Positions 2,765-37,438 of a DNA stretch of 43,460 nt are shown piece by piece. The notes under the pieces are model-generated. The model worked only from the letters and a program-made list of their open reading frames with translations, was not told the DNA's origin and did no database searches. The DNA is from a bacterium (GTDB lineage: Bacteria; Patescibacteriota; Minisyncoccia; Phycocordibacterales; Phycocordibacteraceae), in the NCBI GenBank assembly GCA_021817705.1, contig JAKAGB010000001.1, positions 1-43,460 on the forward strand, in the 5' to 3' direction. The position numbers and the translations under genes were made by a program. The first letter of the stretch is position 1. Each line of letters starts with the position of its first letter.

Positions 2765-2853
2765 GCACCGAAACGAGCCGCATTGGATATACGGTGAGTG
2801 AGGAGCGGAACGAGCAACGACGCAGGCGAGGTGTTTGGCCGTGCCCTCTCGCC

Positions 2854-2862
2854 TGCTAGAAT
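2854..2862 (+). promoter_or_regulatory. extended -10 TGCTAGAAT, 8 nt before ATG 2870
   Basis: TGCTAGAAT actcttc ATG. Confidence 0.5.
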
Positions 2863-2869
2863 ACTCTTC

Positions 2870-3950: not shown

Positions 3951-4021
3951 GCCCCTATAGCTCAATGGTAGAGCAACGGCCTTTTAAGCCGCTGACCTTG
4001 GTCCGATTCCAAGTGGGGGCA
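3951..4021 (+). tRNA. tRNA-Lys (anticodon UUU)
   Basis: Hand-folded. Acceptor GCCCCTA/TGGGGGC, D arm GCTC-AATGGTA-GAGC, anticodon loop CTTTTAA, T arm CTTGG-TCCGATT-CCAAG, discriminator A. One A-C mismatch at the top of the anticodon stem. CCA is not encoded. Confidence 0.8.
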
Positions 4022-4024
4022 CAT

Positions 4025-8625: not shown

Positions 8626-9051
8626 TTAGTGGCCGCGGCCGTGATGGTCTCCGCCGCCGGGGTGGAAACCGCCACCGCCGCGATGATCATCGCCATGGGG
8701 TCGTCCACCGTCGAAACGGTGGTCATCCCCACCGCGGTAACCGCGGTCGTAGTCGCGGTGATCATAATCGTGATGATCGTGGTCGCCGAAGATTCCCCGC
8801 AGAAAGAGGCCGAAGAAAGGATTCGGCGCGTAGCCGGGGCCGTAGTAGCATGGCCGATCCGCAAGCGGATGGTTGTACCACAGAACCTGATTCTGCCCAT
8901 TCACACACACGACCGCACGGTACGGATAGTAGTACGGGTCGTAGTTGTATGCGTAGCCATAGTCATACGGCGACGCATATTGCGCGCTCACTGGCGCGGC
9001 AAACGCAGAAAGAGCAAGAACGGCAGCTGCCGCAAGTAGGAGCTTTTTCAT
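8626..9051 (-). CDS. secreted Tyr-rich protein with long His/Asp/Gly-rich C-terminal tail
   Basis: Signal peptide MKKLLLAAAAVLALSAFAAPVSA. Two Cys. Tail DHDHHDYDHRDYDRGYRGGDDHR...GGGDHHGRGH. AAGGGAGG lies 5 nt before the ATG. Confidence 0.6.
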   Translation of the reverse strand: MKKLLLAAAAVLALSAFAAPVSAQYASPYDYGYAYNYDPYYYPYRAVVCVNGQNQVLWYNHPLADRPCYYGPGYAPNPFFGLFLRGIFGDHDHHDYDHRDYDRGYRGGDDHRFDGGRPHGDDHRGGGGFHPGGGDHHGRGH

Positions 9052-9147: not shown

Positions 9148-10818
9148 ATGGATCTGCCATTCAGTACGAAAGAGAGTGAAGCGAAGCTCTCGCAGGTGCG
9201 CGAGCGCGAAGAAGAGGACCTCGCGCAGATACTCTCGCAGAAATACGGCATGCCCTATGCCGACCTTTCGCTCAAGGAGGTGAACAACGACGCCTTGCGC
9301 GTCGTTCCGGAAGAAGTGGCGCGTAAGGCGGACGCTGCGCCGTTCGACCGCGCCGCGCAAAAACTCTCGCTCGCGGTGCACAATCCGAACAACCCCGCAC
9401 TCGCCGCCCTGCGCGCCGACCTCAAGAGCCGCGGGTTCTCCGCCACTGAACATCTCGTATCGAAGAAAAGCCTCGAGCATGTGCTCGAGCACTACGCCGA
9501 TCTTACGGTCGCGGCGGAATCGAAAGCGGGCGTGTTCGTCGTTGCTCCCGCGGCGTTTTCCGCTGCAGAAAACGCTGGAGCCACCCGCGCCGCGCTAAAG
9601 AATGCGCTCGACGAGGCGAGCGGCATGAAAGCGCTCGACCGCGTCTCGCGCGTTCTCGAGCTCGTCTTCGCCGGCGCGCTCGCTTTGCGCGCTTCCGACA
9701 TCCACTTCGAGCCGGAAGAATCAGCTACGCGCCTCCGCCTCCGCCTCGATGGTCTCCTCACGGAAATCTACGACTTCGACCCGGAAACGTACCGCCTCCT
9801 CAATTCGCGTGTAAAGCTCGTTGCCGGTGTGAAGCTTAATATCACGAACCGCGCACAGGACGGCCGCTTCAGCCTTGCGCATGGCGATTCCGAAATAGAG
9901 ATTCGCGCCTCGTTCATCCCCGGCAACTACGGCGAGTCCATCGTGCTGCGTATCCTCGATCCGGAAGCGACCAAAGTGTCGTTCAAAGAACTCGGTATCC
10001 ACCCGAAACTCCTTACGCGTCTCGAAAAAGAGATCCGCCGCCCGAACGGCATGCTGCTCACCACGGGTCCAACCGGCTCCGGTAAGACCACCACGCTCTA
10101 CTCATTCTTGCGCGAAGTGCAGGCGCCCGAACTCAAAATCATCACGATCGAAGACCCGATCGAATACCATCTTGCGGGCATTGTGCAGACGCAGGTGGTG
10201 GAAGGAAAATACACCTTCGCCGACGGCCTCCGCTCCATCGTGCGCCAAGACCCGGATGTGATAATGGTGGGCGAAATCCGCGACGGCGACACGGCCTCTA
10301 TCGCCATCCAGGCCGCCTTGACTGGCCACTTCGTGTTCTCCACGCTCCACACGAACGACGCTGCGGGCACCTTCCCCCGCCTCGCCGACCTCGGTGCCGA
10401 CCCGAAGTCCTTCGGCTCCGCCATCACCGTCTCCATGGCACAACGCCTTGTGCGCAAACTCGACCAAGAAACCAAGAAAGAGCGCCCGCTCACTGAGGAA
10501 GAAAAGGCAATGATTCAGAAAGTCTTTGAACCGCTCTCCGACAAATCGCTCATCCCTGAAAAAATCGAAACCGTGTGGGAAGCGAGCCCTGTAGGCGAAG
10601 GCGACACCGGCTACCACGGCCGCATCGGTCTCTACGAAGCCATCTTCATGGACGATGAGCTCGCGACCTTCTTGCGCGACAATCCTCCCTCGAATGAGAT
10701 TGCGAAGCTCGCCGCGAAGCAGGGCTACCTCACCATGGCACAAGACGGCATTCTCAAAGCTCTTGCCGGCATCACCTCCCTTTCCGAAGTCGCCTCGACC
10801 GTCGACCTACCGCAATAA
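9148..10818 (+). CDS. pilB: type IV pilus assembly ATPase (GspE/PilB family)
   Basis: GspII_E N-terminal-like region, GPTGSGKTTTLYS Walker A, IITIEDPIEY, VGEIRD, GHFVFSTLHTNDA. Confidence 0.93.
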   Translation: MDLPFSTKESEAKLSQVREREEEDLAQILSQKYGMPYADLSLKEVNNDALRVVPEEVARKADAAPFDRAAQKLSLAVHNPNNPALAALRADLKSRGFSATEHLVSKKSLEHVLEHYADLTVAAESKAGVFVVAPAAFSAAENAGATRAALKNALDEASGMKALDRVSRVLELVFAGALALRASDIHFEPEESATRLRLRLDGLLTEIYDFDPETYRLLNSRVKLVAGVKLNITNRAQDGRFSLAHGDSEIEIRASFIPGNYGESIVLRILDPEATKVSFKELGIHPKLLTRLEKEIRRPNGMLLTTGPTGSGKTTTLYSFLREVQAPELKIITIEDPIEYHLAGIVQTQVVEGKYTFADGLRSIVRQDPDVIMVGEIRDGDTASIAIQAALTGHFVFSTLHTNDAAGTFPRLADLGADPKSFGSAITVSMAQRLVRKLDQETKKERPLTEEEKAMIQKVFEPLSDKSLIPEKIETVWEASPVGEGDTGYHGRIGLYEAIFMDDELATFLRDNPPSNEIAKLAAKQGYLTMAQDGILKALAGITSLSEVASTVDLPQ

Positions 10819-18943: not shown

Positions 18944-19696
18944 GTGTTGTCGACCTTTTTCCATGTGTTTTTCTATAATCCCATCTATAACGCCCTTGTG
19001 GCGATCGTCGCCTTCGTTCCCGGCGGCGATGTGGGTGTGGCGGTAATCCTTCTCACCATCCTCATCCGCCTCATCCTCCTTCCGTTTACTCTTTCCGCGG
19101 CACGCACCCAGCGCGCCATGAAGGAGGCCGAGCCGCATTTGAAGGCAATAAAGGAGAAGCACCAGGGCGATAAGGAAAAAGAGGCGATGGAAACCCTCGC
19201 GCTCTATCGAGAGCGTAAGATAAACCCGTTTTCGGGCATTCTGACCGCATTTATCCAGATTCCGGTGCTGCTCGCCTTGTATTGGGTGTTCCGCTACGAG
19301 CACCTCACCACGCTCGACTCTGCACGGCTCTACGCATTCACCCCGGTTCCCGCACATGTGTCCCTCATGTTCCTCGGTATCGTGTCGGTTTCTGCGGCAT
19401 CCATACTCCTCGCGGTTCTCGCGGGGGGAACGCAGTACCTCCAAGCGCACCTTGCGCTCTCCGGCACCGCAAAACCCGCGGAGGGCGAAGGCGGCATGCA
19501 GGATTTCCAGCGGCTCATGGGCACGCAGATGAAATTCGTCTTCCCTATCCTCATCGGGGTCATCTCCTATTCGGCTGGTGCGGCGGTTGCGCTGTATTTC
19601 ATTACTACGAACCTCGTCGGCTCACTCCAGGAACTATATGTTCGCAAAAAAATCGGTATCGCAGTTCCGGCAATCTCGGAATCTCAGAGCGAGTAA
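18944..19696 (+). CDS. yidC: membrane protein insertase YidC/Oxa1 family (short form)
   Basis: GTG start. VAVILLTILIRLILLPF, MKEAEPHLKAIKEKH, INPFSG, IQIPVLLALYWV. Confidence 0.9.
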   Translation: MLSTFFHVFFYNPIYNALVAIVAFVPGGDVGVAVILLTILIRLILLPFTLSAARTQRAMKEAEPHLKAIKEKHQGDKEKEAMETLALYRERKINPFSGILTAFIQIPVLLALYWVFRYEHLTTLDSARLYAFTPVPAHVSLMFLGIVSVSAASILLAVLAGGTQYLQAHLALSGTAKPAEGEGGMQDFQRLMGTQMKFVFPILIGVISYSAGAAVALYFITTNLVGSLQELYVRKKIGIAVPAISESQSE

Positions 19697-20901
19697 GCCC
19701 AGAGCGAGCCATCATTCTTGTTCACGAAGGTGAGTACCTGCTGATTCTTGTCTACCGCGAGCGCGGTCGCATCAAGCGCACCACCATTCGTCTGCGTACC
19801 GAAATCGAGCACCAAGGAGGCGAAGCGTCCCGTGACGTCTATCTTCCAGATACGGTCATTGAAATGCACGGCGCCCTGGTACCAATCGTCCGGGTACGCG
19901 TAGCTCGCGTCCGGCGAAACCGGGATACCGCAATAAGCAGCGGAGCTGTCCGGTGCCCACACGCATGTATCGGCGATGGTCGCCACCGGCAGCTGAGTCG
20001 CGGAGTCATCGCTCGTATTCACGAGTTCGAGATGCATCGTGCCGCTCGTCGCATAGCTCACGAGTGCCCACTTACCATCCGGGCTCGCGAGCGCAACGAG
20101 CCCGTACAAAGGGCCGGCGATGTGACTGAATGCCCCGCTACTATTCACGAGGTATGCGTTCCCCGCAAGCGAAGCGGACGGTTTCGTGAACACGAGATAT
20201 TGCTTCGCGCCAGCGAACGATGCACGAATCGCGGAAAGCGGTGTCGAGAACACCTGTGCCGGTTTTGTACCGTCGGTGCGCGATACGTTCGCACTCGAAC
20301 CGTTCGCGTCCGATGCGAGTGTAAAGAGGCTCGTGAGTGCGGTATCGAGCCCCGCAAGGTTTTGCGGCAAGAAGAACCCATTCGAACCGTCTGCGGCGAG
20401 CGAGTAGGTGTTTACGGTCGAGAAATCGCTTCCCGAAAGGTACTGCGCGTACACGCGCGAGCCGTCGGGGAGCCAGTAGGCGTCCTCGATACCCGGAATC
20501 GTCTTATTGCTCGTCCTCGTGAGCGTGCCCGCGCGCACGAGGTAGCGGTACAGGTTGCCGCTCTGCCGCTCGATGAAGGAAATGGCGATGTCGGGCGTCG
20601 AGGAGCCGGTCGAATTCGTGCTTGAAGCGTCTACCGCCACGAGCCCAGGCACTATCGGCCCTGCGGCAATCTCTACCAAACGGCTATTCACCTTCTCGGC
20701 CGCGGCACTCGGCAAGGCAACTGCCGGGTTCTGCGCGGCAGGCGTTTGCGCGCTCCCTTGCCCTGCGGAGGGCAGGCTCGTGCTCGTGCCTACGGATGGA
20801 GTGACCGCAACCGACGACCCGCTAAAGAAGTACCAGTATGCGCCGATACCCACCACAAGGAGGGCGAGTGCGCTAACGGCGATGATGATTGGTCGGCGCA
20901 T
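19684..20901 (-). CDS. membrane-anchored extracytoplasmic protein, beta-propeller-like (TolB-like, tentative)
   Basis: N-terminal TM helix IIIAVSALALLVVGIGAYWYFF, Ser/Thr/Pro linker, then repeated beta-strand-rich segments (WLPDGS, SPDGKW, WAPDSS). Last gene of the T4SS-like cluster. Confidence 0.6.
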   Translation of the reverse strand: MRRPIIIAVSALALLVVGIGAYWYFFSGSSVAVTPSVGTSTSLPSAGQGSAQTPAAQNPAVALPSAAAEKVNSRLVEIAAGPIVPGLVAVDASSTNSTGSSTPDIAISFIERQSGNLYRYLVRAGTLTRTSNKTIPGIEDAYWLPDGSRVYAQYLSGSDFSTVNTYSLAADGSNGFFLPQNLAGLDTALTSLFTLASDANGSSANVSRTDGTKPAQVFSTPLSAIRASFAGAKQYLVFTKPSASLAGNAYLVNSSGAFSHIAGPLYGLVALASPDGKWALVSYATSGTMHLELVNTSDDSATQLPVATIADTCVWAPDSSAAYCGIPVSPDASYAYPDDWYQGAVHFNDRIWKIDVTGRFASLVLDFGTQTNGGALDATALAVDKNQQVLTFVNKNDGSLWAYSL

Positions 20902-20904
20902 ATA

Positions 20905-21885
20905 TCAGTTTCCTAGGTTTGGCGTGCTCGAGGTACAAGCGACCATTGCCTCTTGATTATTCGGGCACGAGACTTTAGTCGGATCAGTCGGAGTGGGTGT
21001 TAATGGAACAGATGAGGTGGTAACGATTGGGTTGCTTGTTGGCACGCAATATATGATTGGAGTCGGATGGTAGAGAAGCGAAGCGCTGTTATTGCAGGTC
21101 GCTATCGCAGCCTGACAGTTTCCATTCGGGCAAATATATTGATCGGAAGCAATCGTTGCCGCACCTCCACCAACTGTATTAATGGTTGTTTTCGACACAA
21201 GTGTAGGGCTCCAGGTCCCCCATTGGGTCGGCAGGTTCGGGATGTTGAGCGAGAGATTCAGGATGGAGGGGTTGATGATGCCGAACACGAGCGCGGGCAG
21301 GAGCATGAGCCCAAGCCCAAAGAGCGCATTGTAGATGCGGTTCTTACCTTCCAGTTTCTGCGAAACAGACTCCTGCACCGACATCTCTATACCGCCCCAG
21401 ATGATGTAGACGACCGCGATAGCAGCGGCGAGGCCTATCGCGTATTTGTAGAGATTATTAAGGAAGCTCGGCAGAGCCGGCAGGGTGGAAAAGGGCGTGC
21501 CGCTCTGATTTGCGGTGAGGCCGGGGATTGGTGCGAGCGGAACGAACGGCACGGTCGCGGAATTATCGAGCGTCTGCGCGGTTGCGCCGCCGGGCGTTTG
21601 GTTTCCGTACTGCGCCTGCGAGATACACGAGAAGGTACCATCAGCGTTCTGATTGCAGATGGGGGTTGTACCACCGCAGGCAGGCGTGCAGGACGCAGGG
21701 TTCACCTGGCAGGTGGCCGGGCTCCCCTTGCAGATGTACCCGTCTGGACAGCCGGTCGTCAAGCAATCTGTAGCGGTTTGTGGCGTGGCCTGTGCGGTTG
21801 TCGGGTTTGCAGTGGTGGGCGCAGCAAATGCAGCGCTTGGTGCGAGAAGCGCGAGGGTTATGAGGGTGAAAAGCGTGCGTTTCAT
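20905..21885 (-). CDS. T4SS pilin-like (TrbC/VirB2-type hairpin) protein with Cys-rich N- and C-terminal extensions
   Basis: Signal peptide MKRTLFTLITLALLAPSAAFA. Core LNNLYKYAIGLAAAIAVVYIIWGGIEM plus a second TM helix ALFGLGLMLLPALVFGII. 8 Cys before and 6 Cys after the core. Confidence 0.6.
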   Translation of the reverse strand: MKRTLFTLITLALLAPSAAFAAPTTANPTTAQATPQTATDCLTTGCPDGYICKGSPATCQVNPASCTPACGGTTPICNQNADGTFSCISQAQYGNQTPGGATAQTLDNSATVPFVPLAPIPGLTANQSGTPFSTLPALPSFLNNLYKYAIGLAAAIAVVYIIWGGIEMSVQESVSQKLEGKNRIYNALFGLGLMLLPALVFGIINPSILNLSLNIPNLPTQWGTWSPTLVSKTTINTVGGGAATIASDQYICPNGNCQAAIATCNNSASLLYHPTPIIYCVPTSNPIVTTSSVPLTPTPTDPTKVSCPNNQEAMVACTSSTPNLGN

Positions 21886-22589
21886 AGGCCGAGTATGTTC
21901 GAGCTCTGCGAACCGAACGAAAGCGAGAGGCTCGCGGTAGTCTTCAGTTCGCCTTCGCTCGCAACGAACGAAAGGTTCGCCGCGCCCTGCCCCGACCCGG
22001 TGGGGCGGAGCGTTATGGCAGCGCCCTGACCTGCACTCGCGCCGTTCAAGAACCATTCGAACGTGGGGAGCACGGAATCAACCGGGAATGAATAGGCGCC
22101 GCCATAGAGCGAGACCTCGGAGCCGGTGATGGCGTACGAGCCGCTAAGGGCGTGGTCGAATAGAATGCCGAGGAGCGGGTCGTGCACATACACGCGCACG
22201 GAAGGGTCGCTCGTCGAGAGGTCAACCGATGCGGTGCCAAGGAGGGTGCCGCTCCCGTCGGAAACCGTTACCGTGACCGTACTCGCGCGGTACGGCAGAG
22301 GCGCGTCCACCACAAGACTGCTTTTTCCCACGCCAGAACCGTTTGCTATCGCTACTGAGTCAACCGACCACTCGTAATCGAGCGCTCCCGGCTTCGCGTT
22401 CGTACCGCTTACGACTGCGACGATGCGCGCCACCCCACCCTCTACCAAGAGCGGCTCGCCTTGGTAGAGAGGCGGTGCCGAAGAAAGCGGCTCAACCGAA
22501 AGAGATACGTCCGGTGTTGCGGCGAGCACAACTCCCGGCAGAAGAAGTGCCGGCAGAATGAGGAGTGCCGCAGCATAAGCGGGCTTCAT
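21882..22589 (-). CDS. secreted protein with Ig-like/beta-sandwich repeats (hypothetical)
   Basis: Signal peptide MKPAYAAALLILPALLLPGVVLA, beta-rich. ATGA overlap with the pilin-like gene. Confidence 0.6.
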   Translation of the reverse strand: MKPAYAAALLILPALLLPGVVLAATPDVSLSVEPLSSAPPLYQGEPLLVEGGVARIVAVVSGTNAKPGALDYEWSVDSVAIANGSGVGKSSLVVDAPLPYRASTVTVTVSDGSGTLLGTASVDLSTSDPSVRVYVHDPLLGILFDHALSGSYAITGSEVSLYGGAYSFPVDSVLPTFEWFLNGASAGQGAAITLRPTGSGQGAANLSFVASEGELKTTASLSLSFGSQSSNILGL

Positions 22590-22595
22590 GTGTTT

Positions 22596-22601
22596 AGTAT
22601 A
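22596..22601 (-). promoter_or_regulatory. -10-like TATACT, 7 nt before ATG 22589
   Basis: Minus strand reads CGG TATACT aaacac ATG. Confidence 0.45.
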
Positions 22602-22619
22602 CCGCCTTTGTGCGAATGC

Positions 22620-23294
22620 CTACGCGGCTTCGCGGAGACCGTCGGGGATTTCGCTTTCGGCGACTGCTTCCTCTACCTCCGCTTGTGCAAACCGTGCAGC
22701 TTCTCCGGCTGCCGCGGCTTGCTGCATTTGGATGGCCGCGAGCTGCTGTTCTTGCCGTGCGGCGCGAAGCGCCGCGGCATTCTCTTCTTCCCACTTTTTA
22801 TACGCTTCTTTCTCTCGCTTCATCTGAGCGCGATATCCGCTCCATACGGCCGCCGAGAGCGCGGGCACGGTGCCCACAAGCGGCGTTTCGCTCGCAAGAA
22901 GCGCAAGAAGGAACCGGAGCGCCGCCATGCGGCCGGGCGCGTTGTTTGCGAACATGCGCGGGTTGAACACGACCAAGAGGAACCCGACCACCATCCAGCC
23001 CAAGAGGCCGATGGCCGAAGCGAGAACAAGCCCGAAGAATTCAATACTTTCGCCCGTCGCGAGACCGAATACTCCCGCAATGCCCGCGACGGTTTCTCCG
23101 GCTGTAGTGCTACCGGTAGCGACGCCCGCCGTGACACCCACAAGTGCGGGTCCGAAGAACCACATCTGTTCGCACATGGCGCGCAGGATGTCGAATACAC
23201 CGGCAAGAGCCAGAATCCACCACGCCTTGCCCCAGGTCATGACCGGCGGCGGAGGCGGCAGTTTTTTGCGCGCGCGCATCAAAGAAGGCGGCAT
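22620..23294 (-). CDS. polytopic membrane protein with C-terminal Ala/Gln/Glu-rich coiled tail (hypothetical, T4SS-associated)
   Basis: Four or five hydrophobic helices, then KREKEAYKKWEEENAAALRAARQEQQLAAIQMQQAAAAGE. Confidence 0.55.
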   Translation of the reverse strand: MPPSLMRARKKLPPPPPVMTWGKAWWILALAGVFDILRAMCEQMWFFGPALVGVTAGVATGSTTAGETVAGIAGVFGLATGESIEFFGLVLASAIGLLGWMVVGFLLVVFNPRMFANNAPGRMAALRFLLALLASETPLVGTVPALSAAVWSGYRAQMKREKEAYKKWEEENAAALRAARQEQQLAAIQMQQAAAAGEAARFAQAEVEEAVAESEIPDGLREAA

Positions 23295-23303
23295 ACGAAA
23301 TCA

Positions 23304-23309
23304 ATTATA
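23304..23309 (-). promoter_or_regulatory. -10 TATAAT, 10 nt before ATG 23294
   Basis: Minus strand reads GC TATAAT tgatttcgt ATG. Confidence 0.4.
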
Positions 23310-23310
23310 G

Positions 23311-23335
23311 CGCCGCCGCGCGGAGCGCGGCGGCG
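23311..23335 (-). terminator. perfect 11-bp GC hairpin (CGCCGCCGCGC gga GCGCGGCGGCG) after virB4, without a U-tract
   Basis: Read directly. May be a partial terminator or a stabiliser. Confidence 0.4.
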
Positions 23336-23347
23336 GAATCTTACGGA

Positions 23348-25192
23348 TTATTGGCGCGCCGGCGCAGCTGGCGCGCCGTCCTGCGCTGCCGCGAAGCGAC
23401 CCTTTTCCTGTTTTATCGCCAAAAGCTGCGACGGATCACTCGTGATTATCTGGTCTTCGGTGTAGCTCGCCACCACCTTTATTGCCACATGCTTCAAGCC
23501 CGCGAAGAAAAGCCCCTCCCCCACTCCTGCTTCGAGCAAGAGGTATTTTTCTTCGTCGGTAAGGTTGAACGTTTCTTGGAGCACATCAATCGTCGTCGGC
23601 GACTGTTTTAGGAGGAGCTGCAAGGACGAGTTCGTAAGGATCGGCCGGCCGTAGGGGCTCTTCAAGAAGTCCTCTACATCCTGGGTGATGGTGCAGACGC
23701 CGAGGTAGTACTTGCGGCCGCGTTTCGCCAAGGAATACAGGAACGAGGCGGTGTCCTCGCTCTTCATCATCCACCACGCCTCGTCGATGACGAGGAGCCG
23801 TTTTTTAAGCTCGTAGCGCACCGCATTCCAGATGTAGTGCGTGATGATGTACATGGCGACCGGCTTCAGCTCGTCCTCCATGTCACGCACGGAGAACACG
23901 GCGAACTGGCGCTTCAGATCGATGTTGGTCGGCTGATTCATGAATCCTGCCCACGTGCCGTGCGTGTATTTGGAAAGACGTTCGACCAGAGACACAGAAC
24001 CCTCCATGCCGGAGAGCACCTGCTCGAAGTCGGTCAAAAGCGGCGATTCGGCGCCCGTGAAGTCGGCATCACCCGTGATGTCTTTGAGTGCGTACGTCTC
24101 GGTAATCGCGCGGTCGATGATGGCGTCTTCTTCGGGCGATAGCCCGCCGAGCATAATGCGGAAGAGACCCACCAGGTTAATGATGTTTGAGCGCAAGATG
24201 TCTTTGGGGTTCTCGTCTTCTTTCACGGGCGGCAGGTCGAACGGATTTATGTGGTGTTCGGAAGAGAGCGAGATGTGGAACGAGCGACCGCCGGTCGCTT
24301 CTGCGAGCTGGTCGTACTCGCGCTCGGGGTCGATGACGATGACGTCCGTGCCGAACATGAGAGAACGCAGAATTTCGAGCTTCGTCGCGTAGCTTTTCCC
24401 CGAACCCGACTTCGCGAAGACGACCGAATTGTAGTTTTCCAAAGAGAAGCGGTCGAAGAGGATGAGCGAAGAGTTGTGGCGGTTGATGCCGTAGAGGATG
24501 CCGCGGTCCGAGGTGAGGTCGAAGGAGACGAACGGGAAGATGGAGGACAGGGGCGATGAATTGAGTTTCGAGTTCACGAGGAGTTCGTCGGTGCCTAAGG
24601 GCAGTGTCGAGCGGAACCCTTGCTCCTGCTGGAACAAGGCCGGCTTCGTGTACACGAGCTTCGCGTCGAGGATGCCGCGTATCTCCCCTTCGAGCTTGTC
24701 TATCTCATCCTGGCTGTCGCCATAGAGCGAAAGGTAGAGTCCCACATCGAAGAGCTTTTCCTGCGCCTGTTGCAGGTTGTCACGCAGCTGCTCAAGGTCC
24801 TGGTATGCGGTGTCGAGCATCGGGTCGCGCACGAGGCCGCGCGCCTCGCGTTCGGCAATCTGGCTCTGCACCTCGGCCACTTTCTTCTGGAAGGAGCGCA
24901 GCGCTGCCGCGGTCTCGACCGGATGTATGAAGATGGAGATGTCGAGCACGGAGTCGAGGTTGATGACCGGCGCGAACCAACCGTCCGTGAGGAATCGCGG
25001 GTAAGAGACGGTGTAGAACGTGCGCGCGAATTTCTCACCGAGCTGGAGTTCGCGCGGGCCGATCTTGAGAGCGGCGGGCGCGATGGTGTCGAGGAGGCTG
25101 AGTGCGCCTTTCGCGTAGATATCCTTCGGCAGGACCGGAACGATTTCCGGCGCTTCTTCTTTCTTCTTTCCGAGGAAGTCGAGTAAAGCCAT
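23348..25192 (-). CDS. virB4: VirB4/TrbE/TraC-family type IV secretion ATPase
   Basis: 614 aa from MALLDFLGKKK. Walker A FAKSGSGKSY, Walker B LLVIDEAWWMM, LAKRGRKYYLGVCTITQD. Confidence 0.88.
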   Translation of the reverse strand: MALLDFLGKKKEEAPEIVPVLPKDIYAKGALSLLDTIAPAALKIGPRELQLGEKFARTFYTVSYPRFLTDGWFAPVINLDSVLDISIFIHPVETAAALRSFQKKVAEVQSQIAEREARGLVRDPMLDTAYQDLEQLRDNLQQAQEKLFDVGLYLSLYGDSQDEIDKLEGEIRGILDAKLVYTKPALFQQEQGFRSTLPLGTDELLVNSKLNSSPLSSIFPFVSFDLTSDRGILYGINRHNSSLILFDRFSLENYNSVVFAKSGSGKSYATKLEILRSLMFGTDVIVIDPEREYDQLAEATGGRSFHISLSSEHHINPFDLPPVKEDENPKDILRSNIINLVGLFRIMLGGLSPEEDAIIDRAITETYALKDITGDADFTGAESPLLTDFEQVLSGMEGSVSLVERLSKYTHGTWAGFMNQPTNIDLKRQFAVFSVRDMEDELKPVAMYIITHYIWNAVRYELKKRLLVIDEAWWMMKSEDTASFLYSLAKRGRKYYLGVCTITQDVEDFLKSPYGRPILTNSSLQLLLKQSPTTIDVLQETFNLTDEEKYLLLEAGVGEGLFFAGLKHVAIKVVASYTEDQIITSDPSQLLAIKQEKGRFAAAQDGAPAAPARQ

Positions 25193-25193
25193 A

Positions 25194-25823
25194 CTATTGT
25201 TCGAGACGGATAGGGTTCTCAAGCTCGCCCGGATTGAATGAGCGGTAGAGGAGCTCGATGACCTCCTCGGTGCCGAGGGGCTCCGCGCGCACGCCGGTGC
25301 CCGAGAGCCCTTCAGCAACGAGGGCGAGCCGCTGCTCGAGCTGCACGCGGTCTTCTTCGAACGTGGTTTCAGGGGTCGCCGCGGTCTTCTTCGCGCCGAA
25401 GAAACTCGTGGCCGCCTGCGCTACCTCGACCTTCGGCGCGTACGGCACGACGATATAGAACGATTTGGTCATGATGTTCGCCTGGTCTGCGAACGAACGG
25501 ATGAATTCGATGTACTCGCGGAGCTGGATGCGCAGGAGCTCGGTCTTCTGCTCGGGCTCCTTTTTCGCGAGGAGTTCAAGGTACGGGCGCAGGTCCATCT
25601 TGCGCGAATTCACGACGATCTGTATCGAGAAATCGAGCGTGTTCAGAAACGACTGGAAGCCGAGCGTGACCGCGCGTTGCTCTTCCGTGCTCTTTAGCCC
25701 AAAGTTTATGGACGAACAGAGGAGGATGCCGCGATAGCCGCCATCCTTCAGGATGATGACGCCGTTCCGGATCTCTTTTACCGGGACGAAGTTCTGTGTC
25801 GCGCTTGTAGGGGTTGCGGCCAT
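25194..25823 (-). CDS. T4SS-associated protein resembling the N-terminal region of VirB4-type ATPases (hypothetical)
   Basis: 209 aa from MAATPTS. VPVKEIRNGVIILKDGGYRGILLCSSINFGLKSTEEQ pattern. 1-nt gap to the virB4 ATG. Confidence 0.55.
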   Translation of the reverse strand: MAATPTSATQNFVPVKEIRNGVIILKDGGYRGILLCSSINFGLKSTEEQRAVTLGFQSFLNTLDFSIQIVVNSRKMDLRPYLELLAKKEPEQKTELLRIQLREYIEFIRSFADQANIMTKSFYIVVPYAPKVEVAQAATSFFGAKKTAATPETTFEEDRVQLEQRLALVAEGLSGTGVRAEPLGTEEVIELLYRSFNPGELENPIRLEQ

Positions 25824-25827
25824 AGGG

Positions 25828-26262
25828 CTACTGGTTTTTGCGCTCCGGTTTCTGCACGTCGAGTGACCACGCGAGCTGCTCGAGCTTGCCGCGCGTGAGT
25901 CGGGGCGCAGCGCCCGCCAAGGGCGGTGCAGCGGGCGTTTCCGGTTTTTTCTGCGCCGCTTGCGGCGCCTTCGGCTCCACATGCTTCCAAAGGAAGAGCT
26001 TCGCGCCCACGTAGTACGAAAAGGCAGCCTCCATCATCTCGATGAACGGCTTGCCATTCACCTTGTAGAACGAGAGCGCGACGCCGAGCGCGACGAACGG
26101 CGCGGCCACGAGGAATGCGATTACGAACGAGAGGTATGCGAATGCCGCGACCGTGATGCCCGCAGCACCGGCGAGATAGATGAATTGCTTCAGCGTGAGC
26201 GGCCCCACGATCTTGTTTTCTACCTCGATGAACTGCGGAACCTGGTATTCCATCATCGCCAT
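25828..26262 (-). CDS. PrgI family (VirB3-like) membrane protein
   Basis: YQVPQFIEVENKIVGPLTLKQFIYL followed by two TM helices. The start is possibly the 4th Met (26253), given the position of the -10. Confidence 0.75.
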   Translation of the reverse strand: MAMMEYQVPQFIEVENKIVGPLTLKQFIYLAGAAGITVAAFAYLSFVIAFLVAAPFVALGVALSFYKVNGKPFIEMMEAAFSYYVGAKLFLWKHVEPKAPQAAQKKPETPAAPPLAGAAPRLTRGKLEQLAWSLDVQKPERKNQ

Positions 26263-26269
26263 TCTAGCA
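26261..26269 (-). promoter_or_regulatory. extended -10 TGCTAGAAT overlapping the first ATG of the PrgI ORF
   Basis: Minus strand reads TGCTAGAATGGCGATGATGGAA. The expected TSS falls at Met3/Met4. Confidence 0.45.
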
Positions 26270-26278
26270 CCCGCGTGC

Positions 26279-26902
26279 TCACATTCCGGTGATTACGTGG
26301 AACAGAAAGAGTATGAATTGGTAGAACGGCGCGGCGAGGACGTAGGAAAAAACAATAAGGAAGAGCACGAGCGCGAGTATGCCAGAGGCGCGCACCTGGT
26401 TCTCGAACCGATGGAATCCCGACGCGAGACTCCACGGAAGTGCGGCGCGCACGACCGTGAATCCATCCAAGGGCGGGAACGGGATGAGATTGAAGAGGCC
26501 GAGGAAGAGATTCACGAAAGCGATGGTACCGGCTAAGGACGCCGCGGCGGGGAGCGTGGCGACAAAGAATCGCGCGAACAGCCCGAAGAAGAGCGCAAGG
26601 AAGAGGTTCGTGGCGCTGCCGGCCACTGCGACGAGTGCCTCGCCCCACCGCTGGTTCCTGAGGTTGTACGGGTTATACGGCACCGGCTTCGCCCACCCGA
26701 AGAGGATGGGCGAGCTCGAAAGCACGAGGAGCGCGGGGATGAGCACGGAGCCTATAGGGTCGATGTGCGGCAATGGGTTCAGGGTGAGCCGGCCGGAAAG
26801 CCGCGCGGTTGGGTCGCCGAGAGCGTCGGCGGCGTACCCGTGCGCCACTTCGTGCGCAATGATGGAGAGGAGGAGTATCGCGAGGGTCAGGGCGGTCACC
26901 AT
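26279..26902 (-). CDS. site-2 protease family (M50) zinc metalloprotease
   Basis: HEVAHG motif in TM1, LNPLPHIDPIGS, polytopic. Confidence 0.85.
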   Translation of the reverse strand: MVTALTLAILLLSIIAHEVAHGYAADALGDPTARLSGRLTLNPLPHIDPIGSVLIPALLVLSSSPILFGWAKPVPYNPYNLRNQRWGEALVAVAGSATNLFLALFFGLFARFFVATLPAAASLAGTIAFVNLFLGLFNLIPFPPLDGFTVVRAALPWSLASGFHRFENQVRASGILALVLFLIVFSYVLAAPFYQFILFLFHVITGM

Positions 26903-26909
26903 TGCCTAA

Positions 26910-26915
26910 AGTCTA
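26910..26915 (-). promoter_or_regulatory. -10-like TAGACT, 8 nt before the M50 protease ATG
   Basis: Minus strand reads CG TAGACT ttaggca ATG. Confidence 0.4.
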
Positions 26916-26922
26916 CGGTGTA

Positions 26923-26931
26923 TGGTAGGCT
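26923..26931 (+). promoter_or_regulatory. extended -10-like TGGTAGGCT, 10 nt before the rpmB ATG
   Basis: TGGTAGGCT gcggcaact ATG. Confidence 0.4.
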
Positions 26932-26940
26932 GCGGCAACT

Positions 26941-27183
26941 ATGGCACGAACGTGTGAAATCACCGGCAAGAGCACGCAGATCGGCGGGCGGTATTCTAAC
27001 CGTACCCGCGCGACGCAGTTCAACCCTACGGGCAAGGTGCGCCGCAAGGCAAACCTCCAGAAGCGCCGCATCTTTGTGCCGGAAATCGGCAAGACGCTCC
27101 TCGTGGACGTGTCGGTGAAGGGACTGAAGACTATTAAGAAGAATGGCGCATACGCGACCCTCAAGAAGGCTGGCGTCATTTAA
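26941..27183 (+). CDS. rpmB: 50S ribosomal protein L28
   Basis: MARTCEITGKSTQIGGRYSNRTRATQ..., 80 aa. Confidence 0.95.
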   Translation: MARTCEITGKSTQIGGRYSNRTRATQFNPTGKVRRKANLQKRRIFVPEIGKTLLVDVSVKGLKTIKKNGAYATLKKAGVI

Positions 27184-27198
27184 GACCTAAGGAACGGG

Positions 27199-27238
27199 AA
27201 ACGCGCGAGCCGCCCTGTTGGGGCGGCTCGCGCGTTTT
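27199..27238. terminator. 17-bp hairpin plus T-run; shared by rpmB (+) and the convergent 190-aa gene
   Basis: AAACGCGCGAGCCGCCC tgttg GGGCGGCTCGCGCGTTT T. Confidence 0.8.
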
Positions 27239-27810
27239 CAACCGGGCAAGCGCGTCCCATTTTCTAGATAGGTTCCCGCCGGCGTCGTTGACGCGAGCGG
27301 TACGCGAGCTGGCCCATATATGAGTGTGGCCGAAAGACCGTTCGGCGCCGATGCGAAAGAAATGAACGCACCCCCGCCAAGGTCGAGCTCGGCTCCGGGC
27401 GGAAGCGCGAGCGAGCGGAGCCCGCTCGCGCTTTCGGCATCGACAAGCGTGCGTTCTGTAGCGTTCGTTCCTGGGAACGCGGTACGCAGGAGCGCACCCA
27501 CGCGATACCGCGCCAGCACCGCCACCGCGCCACCCGCCGTGTCGGGTTTCAGGTTTGGCAGCACGAGCACGGTCAAGGAGCGCTGCCACGGCAAGAGCGT
27601 AGTGCCAAGCCCGCGCAATACCGATGCATCGGCTCCGGCGCCCACCAAGACGCGCGTTGCGCCAATAGTAACGAGCGTAGCAGCGCCCTGTCCTTCCGCC
27701 ACCTGTGCGACGCGCACGCCGTTCGGGGCATGGAGCGCATGCCACACGATCCCATTCATGAGCACGAGCGCGAGAAGCGCAAGCACGAGACGCGTGCGGG
27801 TGATTCCCAT
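27238..27810 (-). CDS. membrane-anchored degenerate metallo-beta-lactamase-like protein (resembles a detached ComEC C-terminal domain lacking the HxHxDH motif)
   Basis: N-terminal TM helix. VAEGQGAATLV aligns by eye with the DVGQGDA motif. LVLPNLKPDTAGG sits where THxHxDHxGG is expected. Confidence 0.5.
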   Translation of the reverse strand: MGITRTRLVLALLALVLMNGIVWHALHAPNGVRVAQVAEGQGAATLVTIGATRVLVGAGADASVLRGLGTTLLPWQRSLTVLVLPNLKPDTAGGAVAVLARYRVGALLRTAFPGTNATERTLVDAESASGLRSLALPPGAELDLGGGAFISFASAPNGLSATLIYGPARVPLASTTPAGTYLENGTRLPG

Positions 27811-27847: not shown

Positions 27848-28459
27848 ATGGCTTACACCGAAAAGAAGTTCGACCTCCCTGCGCTCGAGGGGATTTCCGA
27901 GAAGCAAATAACCGTGCATCTCGGACTTTACGCAGGCTATGTGAAGAACGTGAACCTCATCATGGAAACTCTGAAGGGCTACGCCGCCTATGGCGATAAG
28001 GCGAGCGAGGGCGACAAATTCGCCATCGCGGAGTTGCGCCGCCGGCTCGCCTTCGAGTTCGACGGCATGCGCATGCACGAGTACTACTTTGAGCAATTCG
28101 AAGGCGAAAAAGGCGGGTCGCCCGAATCCGGCCTAGCCAAAGCAGCCGCGGATAAATACGGCAGCGGCGAGGCGTTCATCGCGCATATAAAAGAAGTTGC
28201 GGCCACGCGCGGCATCGGCTGGGTGGTGGTGTACTACGACCCGCGCGGCAAAACCCTGCACACAAGCTTTGTAGCGGACCATGAGCTCGGACAGCTCGCG
28301 GGACTTCCCGTCATCCTCGCGCTCGACCTGTGGGAGCATGCGTTCATGGTCGACCGCGTGCCCGCAGAAAAGAAGGACTACGTGGATGCCTTCCTCGCGA
28401 ACCTCAACTGGAGCGTTGTTGAAAAACGATTTGAGGCCGCCACAGCGAGCGCGGCGTAA
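27848..28459 (+). CDS. Fe/Mn superoxide dismutase family protein
   Basis: 203 aa from MAYTEKKFDLPAL. Putative ligands are present (TVH, RMHEYYF, DLWEHAFM). The GKHH stretch is replaced by GLYA. Confidence 0.85.
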   Translation: MAYTEKKFDLPALEGISEKQITVHLGLYAGYVKNVNLIMETLKGYAAYGDKASEGDKFAIAELRRRLAFEFDGMRMHEYYFEQFEGEKGGSPESGLAKAAADKYGSGEAFIAHIKEVAATRGIGWVVVYYDPRGKTLHTSFVADHELGQLAGLPVILALDLWEHAFMVDRVPAEKKDYVDAFLANLNWSVVEKRFEAATASAA

Positions 28460-29871
28460 GCAAGGAGTACCGCCACGAACGGGAACGCGGGAATAATGGT
28501 ATGGGCGAACGGAAGCGCGGCCGAGAGCCGCGCGACCGCTATCACATACGCAGTGCTCGCATACGCGGGCAGCGCGAGTGCGATTGCAAGAGTTTGCGGC
28601 AGGAGGCCTCCCGTGATTCCTGCGAGCGCGGAGAAACCCATAGCCGCGGGCATGATAGGCATGACCGCGAGGTTCGCTGGCACGGCGATGAACGATAGAT
28701 TTCCTGTGAAATAAAGGAGGAGCGGTAAGACGCCGAGCTGCGCCGCGAGTGTCGTGGCTCCCGCCTCGCGCCAGAAAGCGCTTCGGAGGAATGCGAGACG
28801 CACTTCGATCGGTTTTTGAAATGCGATGAGTCCTGCGGTTGCCGCGACTGAAAGCGCGAAGCCCGGGTCGAACGCGAGAAAGAGCGGGTTATAGAGCAGC
28901 ATGAGAAGCACGACGAGGAGGAGCGCGCGACCCGCTGCGTACGTGCGACCGGTCGCGTGCGCATACAGGGCGATGAGTGCCATGAGCGCGGCACGGATCG
29001 CAGTCGAACTCGCGCCGGCGATGCCGACGAACAGAATGAGCGCAAGTGTTCCTCCGGCTGCCTGCACCCGTCGCGGAAGCCGCGCGTACGCGAAAAGCTC
29101 CATGACCCACTCGGCCACCACCATGACGTTGTATCCCGAGAGCACGATGACCTGCACGAGCCCGCTCGCAATAAACGCATCCTCTAAGGACGTGCCGAGT
29201 CCGCTCTTGCCGCCTATGACGATACCGCCCGCCAAGGACGCGTACGGCTCGGGAAGCGCTTGCTCAAGGCCGCCGAGGAACCAGCGTTTCATGCGTGCAA
29301 GAAGTGCTGGCAGCGAGTACCACGGCGCGGGCGCGTCGACCGATAGGTATGCGTAGTTGAGTAAGAAGCGGATGCCGTCTTTTTGCAGGTATTTGTCGTA
29401 GCGGAAGACGCGGCCGTCGTCGCTTGCGAACGCTGCCGGTAGCGCAAGCGTGCCGGAAACGTATACACGGTCGCCCACGCGCGCGGTCGTGGCGCGCGAC
29501 ACGACGGCGAGCACGACGGTCGTTTCGTTGCCGGAAGAGACGCGCACCGGAATGCGCGTGGAGGCGTCGCGCACATCAGGCTCCCCCACCACAACGCCGT
29601 GGTACGCGACTCGGTGCTTTACTTGCGCGGAAAACGAAGGCGGCAGCGGCGAGTCGGCGAGCGCTGCGCGGCCGATACCGAGCGCGAGCAGAATAAAGAA
29701 CAACGCGCCGACCTTGTATATAGAGCGCTGTCCCTCGAAAAGACTCGGGACGACGATAAGAATCGTCGCAAGCAAAAGAGCAAACGCCGCCGCCGGCCAC
29801 CCCACATGAAAAAGCGAGCGGACAAATATGCCGCTCGCAAATCCTTCCACGAGCGCGAGCAGGAAGCTCAT
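28378..29871 (-). CDS. comEC: DNA internalisation competence protein ComEC/Rec2 (DUF4131 OB-like plus competence channel domains, no MBL domain)
   Basis: N-terminal TM helices, OB-like region VVGEPDVRD...RVYVSGTL, polytopic domain with GLVQVIVLSGYNV. The 3' end overlaps the convergent SOD gene by 82 nt. Confidence 0.9.
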   Translation of the reverse strand: MSFLLALVEGFASGIFVRSLFHVGWPAAAFALLLATILIVVPSLFEGQRSIYKVGALFFILLALGIGRAALADSPLPPSFSAQVKHRVAYHGVVVGEPDVRDASTRIPVRVSSGNETTVVLAVVSRATTARVGDRVYVSGTLALPAAFASDDGRVFRYDKYLQKDGIRFLLNYAYLSVDAPAPWYSLPALLARMKRWFLGGLEQALPEPYASLAGGIVIGGKSGLGTSLEDAFIASGLVQVIVLSGYNVMVVAEWVMELFAYARLPRRVQAAGGTLALILFVGIAGASSTAIRAALMALIALYAHATGRTYAAGRALLLVVLLMLLYNPLFLAFDPGFALSVAATAGLIAFQKPIEVRLAFLRSAFWREAGATTLAAQLGVLPLLLYFTGNLSFIAVPANLAVMPIMPAAMGFSALAGITGGLLPQTLAIALALPAYASTAYVIAVARLSAALPFAHTIIPAFPFVAVLLAYAALAVAASNRFSTTLQLRFARKAST

Positions 29872-36006: not shown

Positions 36007-36031
36007 GCCCGCGCCGCGGAGCGGCGCGGGC
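36007..36031 (-). terminator. perfect 11-bp GC hairpin overlapping the stop of the PilX-like gene (no U-tract)
   Basis: GCCCGCGCCGC gga GCGGCGCGGGC. Confidence 0.4.
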
Positions 36032-37437
36032 TACTTTTGTCGCCAGTCCACGAACGTGTAGTTCGTCGAAAGTATGGGCGTGAACGGCGGCGGGTCGGTC
36101 GCGAGCGCGCGGTCCGGGTAGTCCACCGTGTTCACGTAGCCGCCCACGGGGTTGCCGCTCCCGTCCACATACGTTTCTGCAGACTGGAGCGCAGAAAGAA
36201 CGGTGCCCATCACGGTGAGCGTGCCGCGCGGCTCGTAGGAGCCGCCCGCATAGCCGTAGTAGTTCCTGCCGAAGACGCCGCTCTGCGCGACGAACACGCC
36301 CGAAATCGACATGTCCTGCGGCGAATTCGGCGTAATGAGCACGTCGTGCGATGCGATGACCGTGAGGCCGTCCGAACCATCTGCCGAAGCATACGTGATG
36401 TTGCCCGGCAGGTACGCGTTCGGCGTCACGTTCGCGGTTGTCACGTTCGCAACCACCACCGTCACCTTCGCAGGAATCGTGCCTTCTATCCACGCGTTGT
36501 CTTCCACGAATATGAGCCCGCAGTTCGCCGGTATCGGGACCGTCTCATACGAAACCTGATTGCCCATGAGCGCGTAGTCGCTGCCGTACGTATTGCTGTC
36601 CAAGAGGTACACATTCGAGAGCCGGTTCGGTTGCGCCTTGTATATGGTGACCGTGCCGTTCGCGTTAAAGACGAGGTGGTAGCCCTTGTAGTACGCCGTG
36701 CTGTTGCTGTTGCCCGAACTGTAACGCGGCAGGTAGATGCCGCTCGACTGCGCTATCGATTTCAGGTTCGCGAAGTTCGCGGCGATGCCGTTGAAGTCGA
36801 TGGTGGGCGTCGGATACTGCCAGAGGCTCGCGTTCGTGCCGCTGCCGAAGACGCCCGGCTCGGTCTTGCTCGGCGAGCAGCCGTATGAAGACGTGCAGGT
36901 CCAGGTGGATACCGAACTCGAGACCTGCGCATTCGCCGTGCCGTCCATGCGGATGCCGTTGTTCGAGTGGTATGGGCCGTTTACGACGTCCGAAGAGCCG
37001 ATCCATACGCTCGCGTTCGAGACGAAGTCGTAGGAGGCGATGGAGGGCTCCGCATAGCGCGCCTCGAGCGTCACCGGCTGGGTGGAATCGTCCGCCGCGG
37101 TTCCTGTGGAGTCGAGCGTGAGCGAGGTGGTCTGCCCGCACGCGGTGTTCGGGGTGATCGCGAGCGATGCGGTACCAGCCGTGCCCCCTGAGGGGTCGGG
37201 TATGGGAATCGCGTAGGGTCCCGGGAGGCCGGTGCCATTCTGTAGATCGGTCGGGAAATGCGCAAGATGCCAGCGGTAGTACTCGAGCCCCGCTTCGGCC
37301 ACGTTGAACGCTTCGGCACGGACGCGCGTCGCGTCATTCGCGCGATTCTCCGAGAGCACGTAGCCCGAGAGCGCAGCCAGGACCGCGAGGAAGATGCCGC
37401 CGAACACGAGCACGAGGAGCGTAATAGAGCCGCGCAT
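36031..37437 (-). CDS. PilX-N-like large pilus-associated protein (468 aa)
   Basis: MRGSITLLVLVFGGIFLAVLAAL N-terminus followed by AFNVAEAGLEYYRWHL (PilX_N-like by eye). Ser/Thr/Asn/Gly-rich beta region. Confidence 0.6.
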   Translation of the reverse strand: MRGSITLLVLVFGGIFLAVLAALSGYVLSENRANDATRVRAEAFNVAEAGLEYYRWHLAHFPTDLQNGTGLPGPYAIPIPDPSGGTAGTASLAITPNTACGQTTSLTLDSTGTAADDSTQPVTLEARYAEPSIASYDFVSNASVWIGSSDVVNGPYHSNNGIRMDGTANAQVSSSVSTWTCTSSYGCSPSKTEPGVFGSGTNASLWQYPTPTIDFNGIAANFANLKSIAQSSGIYLPRYSSGNSNSTAYYKGYHLVFNANGTVTIYKAQPNRLSNVYLLDSNTYGSDYALMGNQVSYETVPIPANCGLIFVEDNAWIEGTIPAKVTVVVANVTTANVTPNAYLPGNITYASADGSDGLTVIASHDVLITPNSPQDMSISGVFVAQSGVFGRNYYGYAGGSYEPRGTLTVMGTVLSALQSAETYVDGSGNPVGGYVNTVDYPDRALATDPPPFTPILSTNYTFVDWRQK

Positions 37438-37438
37438 A

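Follow-up and report, generated by a model that had tools for sequence, protein, structure and literature searches.

What is a type IV secretion system (T4SS) for when no gene for DNA transfer by conjugation is encoded beside it? The question is raised by a locus on contig JAKAGB010000001.1 (assembly GCA_021817705.1), whose positions 1 to 43,460 are the stretch of DNA analysed here ("the window"). A preliminary description had placed seven co-directional minus-strand genes at positions 19684-26262; we find them at the same coordinates, here numbered g1 to g7 in the direction of transcription, and the public gene calls for the contig agree with all seven, except that g4 is called there at 219 amino acids (aa). 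We consider it likely that they encode a non-conjugative patescibacterial T4SS, in a compact seven-gene form belonging to Kaiserbacteria-like Paceibacteria, that acts as a VirB4-driven pilus or conduit at the interface with a host cell. The novelty that the preliminary description had implied did not hold, as the system has already been described as the Patescibacteria-type T4SS (PMC10633639; PMC12102498; PMC12857230). The locus is a rediscovery of that system, and what is new is the details of the seven-gene version found in this lineage.

Few machines are known to be essential for epibiotic life in a huge, mostly uncultivated branch of bacteria; the patescibacterial T4SS is among them. Wang et al. 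(2023) described an essential T4SS adjoining dnaA in the Saccharibacterium Southlakia epibionticum ML1 (SEML1_0004-0019), whose genes are essential for epibiotic growth by transposon sequencing (PMC10633639); it is the one organism in which such a requirement has been demonstrated. Quinonero-Coronel et al. (2025) analysed 3,035 Patescibacteria genomes and found VirB4 in 2,417 of them, mostly as one clade nested in MPF-FATA; TrsD, PrgI/VirB3 and VirB2-like pilins were common near virB4, VirB6 homologues were fewer, and in Paceibacteria and Microgenomatia the T4SS genes lay near dnaA, dnaN, rnpA and rpmH (PMC12102498). A 2025 review regards patescibacterial T4SSs as new members of the superfamily (PMC12857230), and a 2024 perspective called their role completely unknown.

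A VirB4 ATPase in two pieces

At the centre of the locus is g3. It scored 370.7 bits against NF045971 (the NCBIfam model 'VirB4-like conjugal transfer ATPase, CD1110 family', an equivalog; cut-off 325), over profile positions 184-733 of 752, and both the Walker A (GSGKS) and Walker B (DEAWWMM) motifs are intact, as the preliminary description had read them. Its Pfam matches were P-loop_TraG (PF19044; E 8e-25), AAA_10 and DUF87, and its matches among solved structures were the VirB4 C-terminal domain 4AG5 (E 5.6e-42) and TrwK of R388 (E 7e-7). The best curated family, the CD1110 type of monoderms, points to an MPF-FATA affinity of this VirB4. In a species-level scan the genomes nearest to the bearer of g3 were metagenome-assembled genomes of Kaiserbacteria, Nomurabacteria, Taylorbacteria and Paceibacterota.

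The protein encoded by g2, noted earlier as resembling the N-terminal region of VirB4, proved to be a split-off N-domain of the TrsD type. It corresponds to the first ~165-190 residues of fused VirB4 proteins and fits the TrsD/TraD model: NCBIfam returned TrsD (E 3.2e-5), the CD1110 VirB4 model at positions 2-165 and the mycoplasma Mbov_0397 VirB4 model at positions 101-238, and the protein has a precomputed TraC-like assignment (PF26593). A profile built from 31 g2 orthologues was aligned by hhalign with residues 20-193 of a fused 783-aa VirB4 of a Clostridium perfringens plasmid (probability 74.7%, E 2.6e-5), and g3 aligned with ~residues 203-754 of the same protein. The g2 profile gave nothing useful against solved structures; the link to the VirB4 N-domain comes from NCBIfam and hhalign. 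Because both proteins align, colinearly, to a single fused VirB4, we read g2 and g3 as together being one VirB4, split in two.

Two genes upstream of g3 lies g1, which matched PrgI (PF12666) at 36.3 bits against a cut-off of 27. To follow these genes in other genomes, we scanned one genome per species with g3; more than 543 relatives were found and the best 80 by VirB4 match were kept, 59 of which have enough flanking sequence for synteny to be counted. All three core genes, g1, g2 and g3, are present in every one of these 59 loci.

A decorated pilin and three accessory proteins

The pilin assignment of g6 was borne out by T4SS_pilin (PF18895; 34.3 bits, cut-off 26.6), with a further match to TrbC (E 0.011). 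The protein consists of a signal peptide, an N-terminal insert with eight Cys, a two-helix hairpin at ~residues 140-204 and a C-terminal ectodomain with six Cys, so that all 14 Cys lie in the extensions. Among the 80 related loci, 59 have a detectable hairpin; of the 59 loci with enough flank, 48 do. In contrast to the conserved hairpin, the extensions of related pilins are hypervariable in sequence, range from ~10 to more than 400 residues, and often carry 4-16 Cys, some having none (related pilin reading frames are found, for example, at L004:5790-6908, L028:13360-14616 and L047:13882-15306). Locus L047 has two hairpins within one pilin reading frame, plus a second pilin gene. The eight-Cys N-terminal insert of g6 recurs among the related loci only in L026.

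The g4 protein evolves fast. As described earlier, it is polytopic with an Ala/Gln tail: its AlphaFold2 model (pLDDT 85.8) is all-helical, combining a bundle in the membrane with a long cytoplasmic helix rich in Ala and Gln, and an alignment of 34 homologues shows the conserved motifs WFFGPAL and SE.P..G..PA. An iterated hidden Markov model search placed a family member immediately after virB4 in 70 of 80 related loci, in the slot of a VirB6- or TrsF-type component, and the family comprises only 320 clusters among 1.84 billion representative proteins. Homology to VirB6, TrbL, PrgH or TrsF was considered and rejected, Pfam being blank for the window protein and for the 34 members. The family profile had no match among PDB sequences; hhalign against TrsF and TrsL of pSK41 was negative; Foldseek returned no PDB structure for the model at E ≤ 0.001, although R388 TrwK entries sit in the PDB sequence copy; and the extensions of long family members (370-620 aa) contain no Pfam domain. 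By its position, g4 may be a functional analogue of a VirB6-like subunit.

The g5 protein, described before as beta-rich with a signal peptide, has immunoglobulin (Ig)-like domains according to its family profile, which matched phage Hoc in its Ig-like domains (3SHS; E 2.1e-5); family members also matched Cadherin-like, BiPBP_C, Ig_3 and PKD_3. The gene is present in 55 of the 59 loci. The window protein keeps the signal peptide and is ~100 residues shorter than its orthologues, lacking the first of their three Ig-like domains, which suggests that a domain was lost in frame in this genome. A VirB8-like identity was rejected for g5, since these sequence profiles point to Ig-like, cadherin-like and PKD-like folds and not to an NTF2-like one.

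The last gene, g7, is present in 58 of the 59 loci. Its earlier description as a membrane-anchored, propeller-like protein agrees with the AlphaFold2 model (pLDDT 80.7, pTM 0.75), in which a transmembrane anchor (residues 1-26) and a disordered linker (27-72) precede a beta-propeller (75-405) with some seven blades. Across the family, C313, C324 and a PDDW motif do not vary. Searches of Pfam, NCBIfam and PDB with the sequence gave no match, and Foldseek returned generic propellers only (oligogalacturonate lyase, TolB, WD40) at a TM-score of ~0.5 and 8-14% identity. Such generic matches, together with the lack of a sequence family, do not support reading g7 as an enzyme or as a TolB orthologue. 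Because they have signal peptides or an N-terminal anchor, and because of the 14 pilin Cys and the invariant Cys pair of g7, the predicted topology of g5, g6 and g7 fits a location at the cell surface.

A conserved cassette without conjugation genes

The seven genes occur together in related genomes in a kept order, g1-g2-g3-(g4)-g5-g6-g7, followed by yidC-rnpA and then dnaA-dnaN; yidC is found in 58 and dnaA in 56 of the 59 loci. The opposite flank, with the M50 peptidase gene, rpmB and comEC, is kept in only 12-13 of them. With the window proteins as reference, and in the 80 genomes chosen by that same VirB4 match, VirB4 identity to g3 was 73-90% (median 78%), compared with 50-79% (median 57%) for DnaA and 32-68% for DnaN. 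VirB4 was the better conserved of the two in all 58 genomes from which both it and DnaA were recovered. Because the synteny is fixed and VirB4 is conserved beyond DnaA, these comparisons indicate that the cassette is a vertically inherited core machine and not a mobile element.

As had been reported for this locus, no conjugation parts were recognised. Among the open reading frames (ORFs) scanned in the 43-kb contig, several of which match no family at all, we found no relaxase, coupling protein (T4CP), VirB11, lytic transglycosylase, lysozyme, CHAP, SLT, VirB1, VirB6 or VirB8-10 family. Neither the seven proteins nor the other window ORFs scanned matched TrbL/VirB6 or PrgH. A VirB8-like NTF2 fold and a VirB1-like hydrolase were likewise not found, g5 being Ig-like, g7 a propeller and no hydrolase family occurring in the ORFs scanned, and fold and profile checks of the proteins that the earlier reading could not name yielded nothing like VirB6 or VirB8. 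In related genomes, we surveyed the 10-kb flanks of 78 loci for all P-loop ORFs 350 aa or longer. Four of these ORFs have no counterpart in the window and one of them is T4CP-like, so that a T4CP-like gene lies within 10 kb in one locus of 78 (L060:425-3196, minus strand; 923 aa, matching DUF87, TraG-D_C and T4SS-DNA_transf).

These data bear on the possibility that the cassette is a decaying or domesticated remnant of an integrative and conjugative element whose relaxase and T4CP were lost or lie elsewhere, and which either has no current role or mobilises DNA in trans. The nearest relatives of g3 outside Patescibacteria are indeed VirB4 proteins of conjugative plasmids from Bacillota and Actinomycetota (29-36% identity), the T4CP-like gene of L060 stands 3-7 kb from the cassette, and a tyrosine recombinase gene is present in the window. 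That recombinase, however, is 16 kb off, past glycolysis and pilus genes, and is too distant from the module to indicate an integrative element. All seven reading frames are intact, the origin-side position is fixed across dozens of species-level genomes, and relaxases are rare in the phylum, with 109 in 3,035 genomes and 15 near virB4 (PMC12102498). The surroundings are not those of a mobile element, for which a variable insertion site, an integrase or att sites and deviant composition would be expected: the module's place beside yidC and dnaA is fixed, no integrase adjoins it, and its G+C content (0.58-0.62) is that of the flanks. We therefore strongly disfavour the remnant explanation, to the point of regarding it as very improbable, and reject the reading of the cassette as a mobile element on synteny and conservation.

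Proposed function

How could a T4SS of this content work as a pilus or conduit? By analogy with VirB3-VirB4 biology, the PrgI/VirB3-like g1 would anchor the two-piece VirB4 at the cytoplasmic membrane. VirB4 would then use ATP hydrolysis to extract the Sec-inserted pilin g6 and polymerise it into a short pilus or tube across the thin monoderm envelope, a step modelled on pilin dislocation by Agrobacterium VirB4 and on the R388 assembly model. The disulfide-rich, hypervariable ectodomains at both ends of the pilin would decorate the outside of the filament and could touch the host cell. Judging by position, topology and co-conservation, g4, g5 and g7 might provide the membrane platform and the extracytoplasmic scaffold, parts that VirB6, VirB8 or VirB1 supply in other systems. 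The resulting structure would most likely serve to attach the cell to its host bacterium, to exchange macromolecules with it, or both. In the Agrobacterium model, pilus production without substrate transfer needs no coupling protein, and so the gene content of the locus fits a pilus mechanism.

Several points weigh against this proposal. We know of no pilus seen in any patescibacterial T4SS, nor of any experiment in this lineage. No homologue of VirB6, VirB8 or VirB1 was detected in the window, hence the sufficiency of the seven proteins for any structure is an assumption, and the membership of g4, g5 and g7 in the machine is suggested by conserved adjacency. Since the 80 loci were picked by best VirB4 match, the VirB4 identities are somewhat inflated, the gap to DnaA still being ~20 points. 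Finally, most Patescibacteria genomes contain VirD4-like matches far from virB4 (PMC12102498), and a coupling homologue may exist elsewhere in this genome.

The same gene content could belong to an effector translocator that, like Bordetella Ptl and Brucella VirB, needs no coupling protein and would export proteins to the surface or the interior of the host bacterium. We regard this as unlikely. Protein-secreting T4SSs that lack a T4CP do exist, researchers on Saccharibacteria have speculated that effectors are delivered, and the lifestyle demands manipulation of the host cell. However, no candidate effector, chaperone or secretion-signal gene is linked to the cassette, either in this window or across the synteny block that is conserved in relatives, and the known exporters without a T4CP are diderm, have a full VirB1-11 set and load their substrates by a Sec-dependent route. 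Effector delivery is, moreover, compatible with the pilus model and does not exclude it.

A bolder form of the pilus model, which we hold to be doubtful, makes the machine a self-sufficient, coupling-protein-independent 'feeding pilus': the split VirB4 would build a tube that imports host nucleic acids, lipids or peptides, the pilin ectodomains would recognise specific host envelopes, and g4, g5 and g7 would replace VirB6, VirB8 and VirB1. If true, this reading would make the machine a core organelle of Paceibacteria and add a class of T4SS, of the import type, with a new function.

The locus leaves the overall picture of patescibacterial T4SSs unchanged, and offers a cleaner object of study, with seven genes and a VirB4 more conserved than DnaA. 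The variable Cys-rich ectodomains of its single pilin could mark host specificity, and the three conserved accessory proteins show what cryo-electron tomography or pull-downs should look for. If the compact set is sufficient for filament assembly, it would define the smallest set of parts for a monoderm T4SS pilus.

Position beside the replication origin and the neighbouring genes

The module is flanked by core genes rather than by genes of mobile elements, in agreement with the preliminary description. On the yidC side the window holds genes for RuvA, a Mur ligase, PolA, PilB, RuvB, PBP1A, DnaN, DnaA, rpmH, RnpA and YidC, with dnaA 1.3 kb from g7; on the other side it holds genes for an M50 peptidase, L28 (rpmB), Fe-SOD, ComEC, RNase H, RecJ, HIT, PGK and TPI, and then for pilin-like proteins, PilC and the tyrosine recombinase. 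The cumulative GC skew is lowest at 19-20 kb. A scan for DnaA boxes gave seven matches where 3.1 were expected, which is not significant alone, and six of the seven fall at 17.0-19.3 kb. From the skew minimum and the cluster of DnaA-box-like matches, we place the replication origin beside the module, which is therefore transcribed towards the origin and head-on to the rightward fork.

The gene comEC lies 2 kb from the module, and this neighbour raises a further possibility, namely that the machine imports host or environmental DNA and passes it to ComEC, like H. pylori ComB or archaeal Ced, feeding a cell auxotrophic for nucleotides. Such a role has been proposed in the literature, and a DNA importer would be expected to look like just such a T4SS, lacking relaxase and T4CP. 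We nevertheless find it improbable. The ATPases of archaeal DNA import, CedB (E 3e-8) and CedD (E 1.8e-5), match g3 weakly, at 32.8 bits against a cut-off of 700 and at 23.6 bits against 600, and over the shared P-loop region only; no DNA-binding component was recognised among the seven proteins; and comEC is linked to the cassette in just 12 of the 59 related loci. Of the earlier suggestion that comEC and type IV pilus genes in the window might hint at the substrate, the presence of these genes stands and the link is weak. In Southlakia, according to a passage of the 2025 review, deletion of comEC abolishes competence and leaves the cells viable, whereas the T4SS is essential (PMC12857230, citing Wang 2023). 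Because the comEC deletion is viable, the essential role of that T4SS is not exerted via ComEC. For the present locus, a pilus or conduit at the host interface stays our preferred interpretation.

Other features of the window are collected in Table 1. Type IV pilus genes occur in two places, one with PilB and the other with three large pilin- or pseudopilin-like proteins, one of which carries CarboxypepD_reg domains, and PilC. The tyrosine recombinase, XerC/XerD-like by sequence, adjoins PilC. A small secreted Tyr-rich protein, in which a signal peptide is followed by YASPYDYGYAYNYDPY..., had no family match, and a 336-aa protein matched the Lamin Tail Domain weakly (25.3 bits, below the cut-off of 34.3). 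In an Rfam search of the whole window nothing beyond two tRNAs reached the gathering score.

Table 1. Genes of the T4SS cassette, promoter-like boxes and other features of the 43,460-nucleotide window
Feature	Position	Strand	Description and basis
g1	25828-26262	-	PrgI/VirB3-like small membrane protein; 144 aa; hydrophobic hairpin ~residues 27-66; PF12666
g2	25194-25823	-	TrsD-like protein, split-off VirB4 N-terminal domain; 209 aa; NCBIfam, hhalign
g3	23348-25192	-	VirB4 ATPase body; 614 aa; NF045971, P-loop_TraG, 4AG5
g4	22620-23294	-	Fast-evolving polytopic membrane protein; 224 aa; AlphaFold2, homologue alignment
g5	21882-22589	-	Secreted protein, two Ig-like beta-sandwich domains; 235 aa; family profile
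g6	20905-21885	-	VirB2/TrbC-like pilin, Cys-rich ectodomains; 326 aa; PF18895
g7	19684-20901	-	Transmembrane-anchored beta-propeller; 405 aa; AlphaFold2, Foldseek
Extended -10-like box 5' of g1	26261-26269	-	TGCTAGAAT; TGcTATACT type; candidate promoter, putative function
TATAAT box	23304-23309	-	9 nucleotides upstream of g4 start codon; read from window sequence alone
TATACT box	22596-22601	-	6 nucleotides upstream of g5 start codon; read from sequence
Overlap of g7 and yidC	19684-19696		13 nucleotides; convergent 3' ends of g7 (-) and yidC (+)
comEC	28378-29871		ComEC
tRNA-Arg(CCG)	519-591	+	
336-aa protein	2798-3808	+	Weak Lamin Tail Domain match
tRNA-Lys(UUU)	3951-4022	+	
Tyr-rich protein	8626-9051	-	Small, secreted
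PilB	9148-10818	+	Type IV pilus; T2SSE/MshEN
Pilin-/pseudopilin-like proteins	36031-39776	-	Three large proteins
PilC	40216-41430	-	Type IV pilus; T2SSF
Tyrosine recombinase	41895-42854	+	XerC/XerD-like

Promoter-like boxes and transcription units

The preliminary description had all seven genes packed with gaps of 1-4 nucleotides (nt) or ATGA overlaps. This is true of four junctions (g1-g2, 4 nt; g2-g3, 1 nt; g5-g6, ATGA overlap; g6-g7, 3 nt), but g3-g4 and g4-g5 are separated by 53 and 30 nt, and so the locus is not a uniformly tight operon. Each of the two looser gaps contains a -10-like box, and an extended box of the TGcTATACT type precedes g1. The last of these recurs in relatives: such a box starts 11-15 nt before the start of g1 in 56 of 76 related loci, compared with 11 of 80 for g2 and g3 as controls. 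Because this spacing is conserved, the true start of g1 is probably the ATG at 26253, which would give a protein of 141 aa. For g5, the first 22 related loci were examined, and in 14 of them a TATAnT box lies 12-15 nt ahead of the start.

At g1, g4 and g5 the boxes end 6-9 nt before the start codons, and no obvious Shine-Dalgarno sequence is present. The box upstream of g1 is likely to be a promoter for a leaderless or near-leaderless g1-g2-g3 transcript, and that upstream of g5 is likely to act as an internal promoter for g5-g6-g7. The boxes before g1, g4 and g5 therefore suggest that the seven genes form at least three transcription units with leaderless-type mRNAs, as far as this can be read from DNA. 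They came from reading the intergenic DNA and the relatives; in a generic promoter and terminator scan of 19000-27500, matches were not enriched over shuffled sequence. At the far end of the cassette, g7 and yidC converge and their 3' ends overlap (Table 1).

Comparison with known systems

From the Patescibacteria-clade T4SS (PMC12102498) the locus does not differ in kind. Both have an MPF-FATA VirB4 with TrsD and PrgI/VirB3 adjacent and a PF18895 pilin, both are found in Paceibacteria, and both adjoin dnaA, dnaN, rnpA and rpmH without a relaxase or a nearby T4CP.

The Southlakia system shares with the window the order PrgI, TrsD-like protein, VirB4, a strand facing the origin, a distance of a few kb from dnaA/dnaN, PF18895 pilins, an Ig-like exported protein and a cluster with no recognisable relaxase or coupling protein. 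Its cluster, however, is about twice as large and includes a lysozyme/CHAP protein, a DD-peptidase protein, two VirB6-like proteins of ~1000 aa, an NTF2-like (VirB8-like) protein and six short pilins, none of which is present in the window. In their stead the window has one long decorated pilin, the small g4 and a beta-propeller protein.

Among conjugative systems, the trs genes of pGO1/pSK41 and the tra genes of pIP501, of the MPF-FATA subclass with TrsD, run TrsC-TrsD-TrsE-TrsF in parallel with g1-g2-g3-g4, TrsC being VirB3-like, TrsE a VirB4 and TrsF a membrane protein. In pSK41, TrsB is a small CagC/VirB2-like gene and TrsD matches the g2 family, whereas g4 has no detectable similarity to TrsF or TrsL. 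Unlike the locus studied here, pSK41 is a plasmid and has additional genes for a CHAP hydrolase, TrsH, topoisomerase III, a VirD4-like T4CP, a TrbL-family protein and SSB, as well as MobA/MobL and MobV relaxases. The C. perfringens plasmid pSXP-169_2, of the CD1110 type, represents the best-scoring curated family for g3, and it too has PrgI directly upstream of VirB4. Its VirB4 is a single 783-aa protein, in contrast to the split one in the window, and the plasmid links MobC, a relaxase, a VirD4-like protein, an SLT transglycosylase, a topoisomerase and a sortase; MobC, relaxase, VirD4-like protein, PrgI, VirB4 and SLT hydrolase all lie within 15 kb.

Bordetella Ptl, Brucella VirB and H. pylori ComB likewise work with no VirD4-type coupling protein, and set a precedent for uses other than conjugation. 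All of them belong to diderms and possess VirB6-VirB10 homologues, and we found no homology to the window apart from VirB2, VirB3 and VirB4.

What the locus adds to the published systems is a seven-gene Paceibacteria version that does without the Southlakia hydrolases, the ~1000-aa VirB6-like proteins, the NTF2-like protein and the pilin array. The accessory families g4, g5 and g7, the hypervariable disulfide-rich ectodomain of the pilin and the internal promoter-like boxes are likely to go beyond earlier accounts as well; they are not described in PMC12102498, from whose text the word 'propeller' is absent.

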